In this document: in pieces, positions 27,418-27,939 of the stretch
Layout of the letters: each line of letters starts with the position of its first letter
Numbering within the stretch: position 1 is the stretch's first letter
Assembly (NCBI RefSeq): GCF_988242995.1
Contig: NZ_OZ547043.1
Reading direction: 5' to 3' (one strand)
DNA: 64,000 nucleotides
The notes under the pieces: model-generated
Databases searched by the model: none
The model's input: the letters and a program-made list of their open reading frames with translations, nothing else
Told to the model about the DNA's origin: nothing
Program-made: the position numbers and the translations under genes

Positions 27418-27939
27418 TCAGGCTCCGGATGACTTTCGTTTTTTCTCCAGCTCCTGGCGCTTTTTTTCCAGGAGATGCTCCTGCATGGCTTTCAGATATG
27501 CATTTTCTGCGCGAAGATAACGCAGCTCATTCTTCATCTCTTCCGGCGTCATGTTTGCCTCGTTTTCATGGGTATCATCAGAACGGGTCATGCTTTTCTC
27601 CTTCCTGCGCCTGATAAAGGCCTCATTACCAGATTTGCGGTAGCCTTTTATCCAGTTTTTAACCGTGTTGTGGCTGGGAATGTTAAACCGGGCAGCTACC
27701 CGGGGTAGAGACTCAGAATGCCCGAGAGCATAAAGAACCACGCAAAGTTTATCTTCAGGAGAATAGCTACGCTTGTGTCTGCAATCCAGTGCCCGAGGAC
27801 CGTGAAGAAGAAAAAGATTAATCCAGTGTGAGAGGCTGGTGTGAGAAAGTTGAAAGAGTTTTGCCGTAGAAATGATGCCTGCATGACCAGCCAGGTAATG
27901 ATTTACAGCGGCAAGTTTTACTTCAAATGAATGTTTCAT
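27418..27939 (-). CDS. IS3-family transposase OrfA (helix-turn-helix plus leucine-zipper region), about 173 aa
   Basis: ORF beginning MKHSFEVKLAAVNHY with a C-terminal coiled-coil-like region (LRYLRAENAYLKAMQEHLLEKKRQELEKKRK); the slippery site GAAAAAAAG sits near its 3' end (about 27458..27466). Confidence 0.85.
   Translation of the reverse strand: MKHSFEVKLAAVNHYLAGHAGIISTAKLFQLSHTSLSHWINLFLLHGPRALDCRHKRSYSPEDKLCVVLYALGHSESLPRVAARFNIPSHNTVKNWIKGYRKSGNEAFIRRRKEKSMTRSDDTHENEANMTPEEMKNELRYLRAENAYLKAMQEHLLEKKRQELEKKRKSSGA

Follow-up and report, generated by a model that had tools for sequence, protein, structure and literature searches.

A conserved A_AAA_AAG heptamer as the probable programmed -1 ribosomal frameshift signal of an IS1397 copy inserted between apaH and folA

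A slippery heptamer, A_AAA_AAG, was located near the 3' end of orfA in a complete copy of IS1397 (IS3 family, IS150 group), and this site is very probably the programmed -1 ribosomal frameshift signal of the element. The stretch of DNA analysed (64,000 nt; hereafter the window) contains a single copy of IS1397, and the frameshift cassette is an ordinary feature of this element which is already known from RefSeq annotation and from the recoding literature. Ribosomes translating orfA would arrive at GA-A AAA AAG, where lysyl-tRNAs occupy the AAA codon in the P site and the AAG codon in the A site; a fraction of these ribosomes would then slip one base back onto AAA AAA and continue at GCG. The slipped ribosomes would produce a 449-amino-acid OrfAB protein, in which the HTH and zipper of OrfA are joined to the HTH_21 domain and DDE core of OrfB, while ribosomes which do not slip would stop at the TGA codon at 27420-27418 and yield the 173-amino-acid OrfA, which is taken to be regulatory by analogy with other IS3-family elements. 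An AGGAG sequence 12 nt upstream could pair with the 3' end of 16S rRNA, and a predicted 38-nt hairpin starting 3 nt past the heptamer would be a likely second stimulator.

The element was identified as IS1397 by its sequence identity, domain content, inverted repeats, target duplication and REP target, in agreement with the original prediction, made from the DNA letters alone, of an IS3-family transposase. It was found to share 99.7% nucleotide identity over 1,451 nt (a full-length match) with loci named 'IS3-like element IS1397 family transposase' by PGAP, and its OrfAB is 100% identical to the OrfAB of another copy. A full-length copy of IS1397 is present in approximately 1,700 of 5,426 complete E. 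coli genomes. The features of the element in the window are as follows.

26559..27990, minus strand: complete IS1397, 1,432 bp, with TG...CA ends and 99.7% identity to annotated copies
27966..27990, minus strand: left terminal inverted repeat (TGAACTGCACCCCAAATGTTGGACA), matching the right end at 21 of 25 positions
26559..26583, plus strand: right terminal inverted repeat (TGAACTGAACCCCAAAACCTGGACA, read inward), 25 bp
27418..27939, minus strand: orfA, from ATG at 27939 to TGA at 27420-27418, 173 amino acids, an HTH DNA-binding protein with Pfam domains HTH_28 and HTH_Tnp_1
26591..27526, minus strand: orfB reading frame, -1 relative to orfA, with HTH_21 and the rve DDE integrase core and a stop codon at 26593-26591
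27460..27466, minus strand: slippery heptamer A_AAA_AAG, within an A7 run (27467-27461) and conserved in six relatives

A Shine-Dalgarno sequence (AAGGTG) lies 6 nt 5' of the orfA ATG. The arrangement is that of the IS3 family: two consecutive ORFs overlap by 109 nt (27526-27418) with orfB in the -1 frame; OrfA carries an HTH domain and OrfB a DDE/rve core, with a match to the NF033516 model above its cutoff; and the ends are imperfect 25-bp inverted repeats with TG/CA termini, flanked by a 3-bp duplication (ACC) for which the empty site was verified.

The minus strand reads CTG GAA AAA AAG CGC, placing AAAAAAG at 27466-27460. The first A of the heptamer is the third base of the orfA GAA codon (phase 2), which is the canonical X_XXY_YYZ phase, and the predicted A-AAA-AAG in the orfA frame was thereby confirmed. 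The -1 frame was found to be open from 27526 to the stop codon at 26593-26591, reading ...KKAPGAGEKTKVIRSL...KQLIASIFHEHRG..., and its translation after the heptamer (KK|APGAGEKTKVIRSLRCGH...KQLIASIFHEHRG...) runs into the orfB DDE domain as had been quoted in the original prediction. The site therefore has the make-up of a -1 frameshift cassette, with an X_XXZ_ZZN heptamer in 0-frame phase inside the overlap and a -1 frame without a stop codon. Neither of the two observations named beforehand as evidence against frameshifting, a stop in the -1 frame and an independent start for orfB, was made: the orfB frame contains no ATG, GTG or TTG between 27526 and a GTG at 27313 (213 nt), and so there is no independent upstream orfB start. 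The heptamer alone is not rare, with 17 occurrences of A_AAA_AAG in the window compared to 13.2 +/- 3.5 expected from shuffled sequence; what makes it significant is that it is in phase, falls within the 109-nt overlap and has been strictly conserved in relatives.

The conceptual OrfAB protein (27939..27460 joined to 27460..26591) is 449 amino acids in length, with the junction peptide ...LLEKKAPGAGEK... and the Pfam domains HTH_28, HTH_21, rve and rve_2. When the frame-shifted translation was compared to IS3 transposases, as had been proposed, it was found to match the NCBIfam equivalog NF033516 (IS3 family transposase) at 387 bits (cutoff 160), in a single alignment which crosses the junction and covers positions 1-369 of 369. 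In RefSeq, PGAP divides the CDS of copies which are 98-100% identical across the frameshift region into two pieces and adds the note 'programmed frameshift'. In the survey of Sharma et al. 2014 (NAR 42:7210, PMC4066793), IS1397 is assigned to cluster A_AAA_AAG_5 ('Fam IS3/grpIS150/IS1397 [true]', SD/structure Y/Y; Table S4) and is listed with an SD frequency of 1.00, a hairpin value of 1.00, a hairpin of 38 nt, a spacer of 3 nt and a first stem of 4 bp (Table S8), while another table of the same supplement gives a frameshift product of 449 amino acids. The prediction of OrfA together with an OrfAB fusion is thus upheld by the NF033516 match, the PGAP note and this cluster. According to a footnote in that survey (PMC4066793), frameshifting in cluster A_AAA_AAG_5 'can be safely inferred'; it is not there called demonstrated. 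No direct measurement of frameshifting in IS1397 was found in the literature searched, the original IS1397 papers being outside that search. A fused-frame construct was reportedly used in the original work on IS1397.

The appropriate annotation is therefore one IS1397 transposase CDS (27939..27460 plus 27460..26591) in addition to OrfA, and neither a pseudogene nor two unrelated genes. Copies of IS1397 in E. coli FCI5 and ESM2.2 were observed to have lost 1 nt or 5 nt within GGGCTGGCC, approximately 85 nt 3' of the heptamer (aligned with window positions ~27375-27385); these extra downstream indels, together with the PGAP 'frameshifted' pseudogene flag, indicate decayed copies of IS1397, not alternative recoding. 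Five IS1397-like places were also noted in NZ_CP141089.1 (E. coli, 4.94 Mb), a sequence which is filed among plasmids and is evidently a chromosome.

A protein search with OrfA identified six relatives (53-59% OrfA identity), one of them from an Erwinia assembly, and their DNA was compared to that of IS1397. The sequence GGAAAAAAAGCGCC is invariant, in the same place and phase (GGA AAA AAG CGC C), in all six at approximately 55% OrfA identity, and the third bases of GAA and AAA, at which a change would be synonymous, are among the invariant ones. As these third positions lie 5' of the shift, they are not constrained by orfB coding and belong to the 0 frame only. The heptamer is in phase in all seven lineages of the IS1397 clade, and the A7 run is kept in every clade relative. 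A more distant set from the IS150 group (IS150, ISKpn8 and others from Rhizobium, Raoultella and Enterococcus; 41-46% identity) was also inspected; in six of the seven IS150-type elements whose ORFs are split, the overlap holds an in-phase A_AAA_AAG or A_AAA_AAA, and ISLla3, the seventh, has U_UUA_AAA. A_AAA_AAG ranks in the top three heptamers for efficiency in E. coli; of the heptamers found in elements of the IS1 and IS3 families, 72% are either A_AAA_AAG or A_AAA_AAA (PMC4066793). A further relative, ISKpn38 from a Klebsiella grimontii plasmid (~36% identity), encodes the whole transposase in one uninterrupted ORF of ~1.5 kb, for which a frameshift is not needed.

In the closest relatives (~55% OrfA identity) the TAG stop codon of orfA shares its G with a GTG of the orfB frame (UAGUG), at which gene callers start orfB, and this overlap suggests coupled initiation of OrfB in those elements. 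IS1397 is without the UAGUG overlap: it has GTC at the homologous position (window ~27433-27431), and its orfA is four codons longer.

Sequences which might stimulate frameshifting were sought by the published rules of Sharma et al. 2014 (PMC4066793), under which an SD-like sequence is placed 6-17 nt upstream of the heptamer. The following features were recorded around the heptamer.

27478..27482, minus strand: SD-like AGGAG, 12 nt upstream of the heptamer and inside the 6-17 nt interval
27419..27456, minus strand: predicted 38-nt hairpin after a 3-nt spacer (CAGG/CCUG, a 2x2 internal loop and CUGGA/UCCGG), enclosing the second A run
27439..27444, minus strand: second A6 run (GAG AAA AAA CGA), Lys-Lys codons in the orfA frame, in the hairpin loop

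AGGAG or GGAG at 12 nt, within the interval of this rule, was found in eight of nine IS1397-clade sequences, representing six of seven lineages, while one relative has no SD-like sequence. The 38-nt hairpin has a predicted free energy of -12.4 kcal/mol and conforms to the published energy and geometry rules; compared to shuffled sequence, the gain in energy is modest (z = -1.1 to -2.5). Hairpins at frameshift sites usually follow a spacer of 5-8 nt, and the 3-nt spacer of IS1397 is shorter.

Across nine sequences of the IS1397 clade, 86% of cells in the hairpin alignment were paired compared to 26-44% in slid controls, the structure itself having been derived from one of the nine; in the shuffle control the observed percentage was reached in 183 of 500 cases, with no excess of pairing beyond that expected from column composition. 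A single pair was found to have changed on both sides (columns 44/67; U.G, U-A and A-U), and it is unpaired in four of the nine sequences. RNAalifold gave no convincing consensus for the nine sequences, with a penalising covariation term (+0.99), and proposed a 5-bp long-range pairing (GCCAG/CUGGC). With identities of 97% or more across the site, the E. coli copies of IS1397 hold too little variation for covariation; among their variants in the hairpin, one G-to-A change turns a U.G pair into U-A and two others break outer pairs. A search of window positions 26500-28050 on both strands with the curated frameshift elements of Rfam (for example IS1222_FSE and DnaX) gave no match at E <= 1. In E. 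coli isolate 648 the second run reads AAA AAG (window 27439), creating an in-phase A_AAG tetramer, and an A-to-T change in the same isolate breaks an A-U pair of the first hairpin stem.

The slippery site is well supported. The putative SD-like element is supported by its position and by its presence in six of the seven lineages, and the 38-nt hairpin is a candidate stimulator, plausible but unproven. The search for a downstream stem-loop suggested by the original prediction thus returned a candidate hairpin with a 3-nt spacer, but its pairing was no better than that of the shuffle control. The second A6 run pointed out in the same prediction is present, 18 nt from the start of the AAG codon to the first AAA, but it is not an in-phase heptamer (it reads G_AAA_AAA in phase 0) and it is not conserved, varying in the relatives as AAAAAG or ACAAAA. 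As a canonical slippery site it was rejected on phase and non-conservation; it is probably just Lys-Lys coding and at best a weak site of the A_AAA tetramer type.

Other explanations of the same sequence were considered. RNA polymerase could add one A at the A7 run (27467-27461), in which case normal translation would give the same OrfAB (E-K-K-A-P-G) instead of, or besides, a ribosomal slip, the protein being indistinguishable from the ribosomal product. The run is exactly seven A's long and is kept in all IS1397-clade relatives, and for IS1447, also of the IS3 family, a run of seven was reported to be enough, although realignment is generally reported at runs of nine or more, making A7 borderline (PMC6211511). 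In IS150-type relatives the same heptamer contains a run of A6 only, and the precise match to the X_XXY_YYZ phase, the G at the end of the heptamer, the SD-like sequence and the hairpin are features of ribosomal frameshifting and not of slippage by the polymerase; transcriptional slippage as the main route was accordingly considered very unlikely. A main shift at the second A run (27444-27439) would also enter orfB, since this run is inside the overlap, and AAA AAA holds an in-phase A_AAA tetramer. This tetramer is however the weakest of the six which score well above background (PMC4066793), G_AAA_AAA is not a canonical heptamer, the A6 is not conserved in relatives, and the run lies in the predicted hairpin loop with no stimulator at a suitable distance, so that its use as the main site has a close to negligible probability.

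It could also be that no recoding takes place, with OrfA and OrfB made separately and the heptamer merely encoding Glu-Lys-Lys. OrfB would then start internally, either at GTG 27313, which is in frame and keeps HTH_21 and rve, or by reinitiation after the orfA stop codon; in the close relatives, gene callers use the GTG of UAGUG as the orfB start. An independent start was rejected for IS1397, where GTC stands in place of the relatives' GTG and the orfB frame lacks a start codon for 213 nt, and GTG 27313 is preceded only by a distant AAGGA. The synonymous sites of the heptamer in the 0 frame are moreover invariant in seven lineages and the IS3 transposase model is continuous across the junction, and a separate OrfB, if made, does not exclude OrfAB. 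The absence of recoding was on these grounds judged highly improbable, and programmed -1 ribosomal frameshifting at A_AAA_AAG is the preferred reading.

The window copy was compared to known systems. Its heptamer, its 449-amino-acid product, its SD-like sequence and its 38-nt hairpin with a 3-nt spacer and a 4-bp first stem all match the entry for IS1397 in cluster A_AAA_AAG_5 (Sharma et al. 2014), and nothing of substance differs from the reference copies of IS1397 except the REP locus between apaH and folA, which is unoccupied in 5,426 complete genomes. With IS150, as far as the work of Vogele et al. 1991 is described in PMC4066793, IS1397 has in common the IS group, the A_AAA_AAG heptamer, the OrfA/OrfAB logic and ~43% OrfAB identity. 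The IS150-type heptamer is located in a conserved ENAYLKK motif, whereas that of IS1397 lies nine codons further downstream in LLEKK, and in the IS1397 clade the position equivalent to ENAYLKK reads CTG AAA GCC, which is non-slippery. IS150-type elements have a 6-nt spacer followed by a 10-bp stem (GCCUUAGCUC/GAGCUAAGGC), compared to the SD-like sequence and weaker, interrupted hairpin of IS1397; the inner pairs of the 10-bp stem differ by matching changes on both arms in the relatives, which were inspected by eye. No SD-like sequence was found in the IS150-type relatives under the rules of Sharma et al. 2014.

The cassettes of IS911 and dnaX (PMC4066793) share the three-part layout of the IS1397 cassette, in which A_AAA_AAG is preceded by an SD-like element and followed by a structure. 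IS911 belongs to a different IS3 subgroup and its downstream element is a three-way junction or a stem-loop after a 6-nt spacer, dnaX is a cellular gene, and the stimulators of neither have sequence homology to those of IS1397. By its layout, the IS1397 cassette resembles, and may be functionally closer to, those of IS911 and dnaX than to that of IS150, which has a stem-loop only. The differences from IS150-type elements and from near relatives are plain in the sequences; for what they might mean, the balance is even on whether the IS1397 clade moved its recoding cassette within the IS150 group, losing the ENAYLKK site, gaining a new A_AAA_AAG nine codons downstream, replacing the 10-bp stem with an SD-like sequence and short hairpin and losing UAGUG, such that the OrfA:OrfAB ratio would be set only by frameshifting, possibly with polymerase slippage at A7 in addition. 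The nine-codon displacement, the UAGUG loss and the private insertion described below are small points which were not found stated elsewhere.

The neighbours of IS1397 are apaH (minus strand, 28029-28871) on one side and folA (plus strand, with its end at 26516) on the other, and the following features mark its insertion.

27991..27993, minus strand: target-site duplication ACC, left copy; the flanks joined by a single ACC match other E. coli
26556..26558, minus strand: target-site duplication ACC, right copy, from the same comparison of the joined flanks with the empty site
27991..28008, minus strand: left half of the split REP/palindromic unit (GCCGGATAAGACGCGACC)
26541..26558, minus strand: right half of the split REP/palindromic unit (ACCGGCGTCGCATCCGGC)

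When the flanks were joined by one ACC, 400 nt gave an uninterrupted 100% match between apaH and folA in other E. coli. The flank junction with a single ACC thus exists elsewhere as an intact empty site, and the insertion of IS1397 is therefore precise. The element divides a REP/palindromic unit (GCCGGATAAGACGCG-ACC-GGCGTCGCATCCGGC) at its centre. REPs, the palindromic units of BIMEs, are the reported target of IS1397 (PMC1525189), and the REP target of the window copy agrees with this described specificity (PMC1525189). A second REP-like pair (CTTATCCGGCCTAC...GATAAGACGCG...) was observed at window positions 15388-15440, without an IS.

The occupied junction between the apaH flank and the IS was absent from all 5,426 complete E. 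coli genomes, and the copy between apaH and folA is therefore a private and probably recent insertion. Its absence from these genomes points to recent transposition, and hence to some member of the family having recently made active transposase; a private insertion next to folA shows that the IS1397 family is still mobile in E. coli. Programmed frameshifting at the A_AAA_AAG heptamer would set the ratio of OrfA to OrfAB, and hence the activity of this REP-targeting element.
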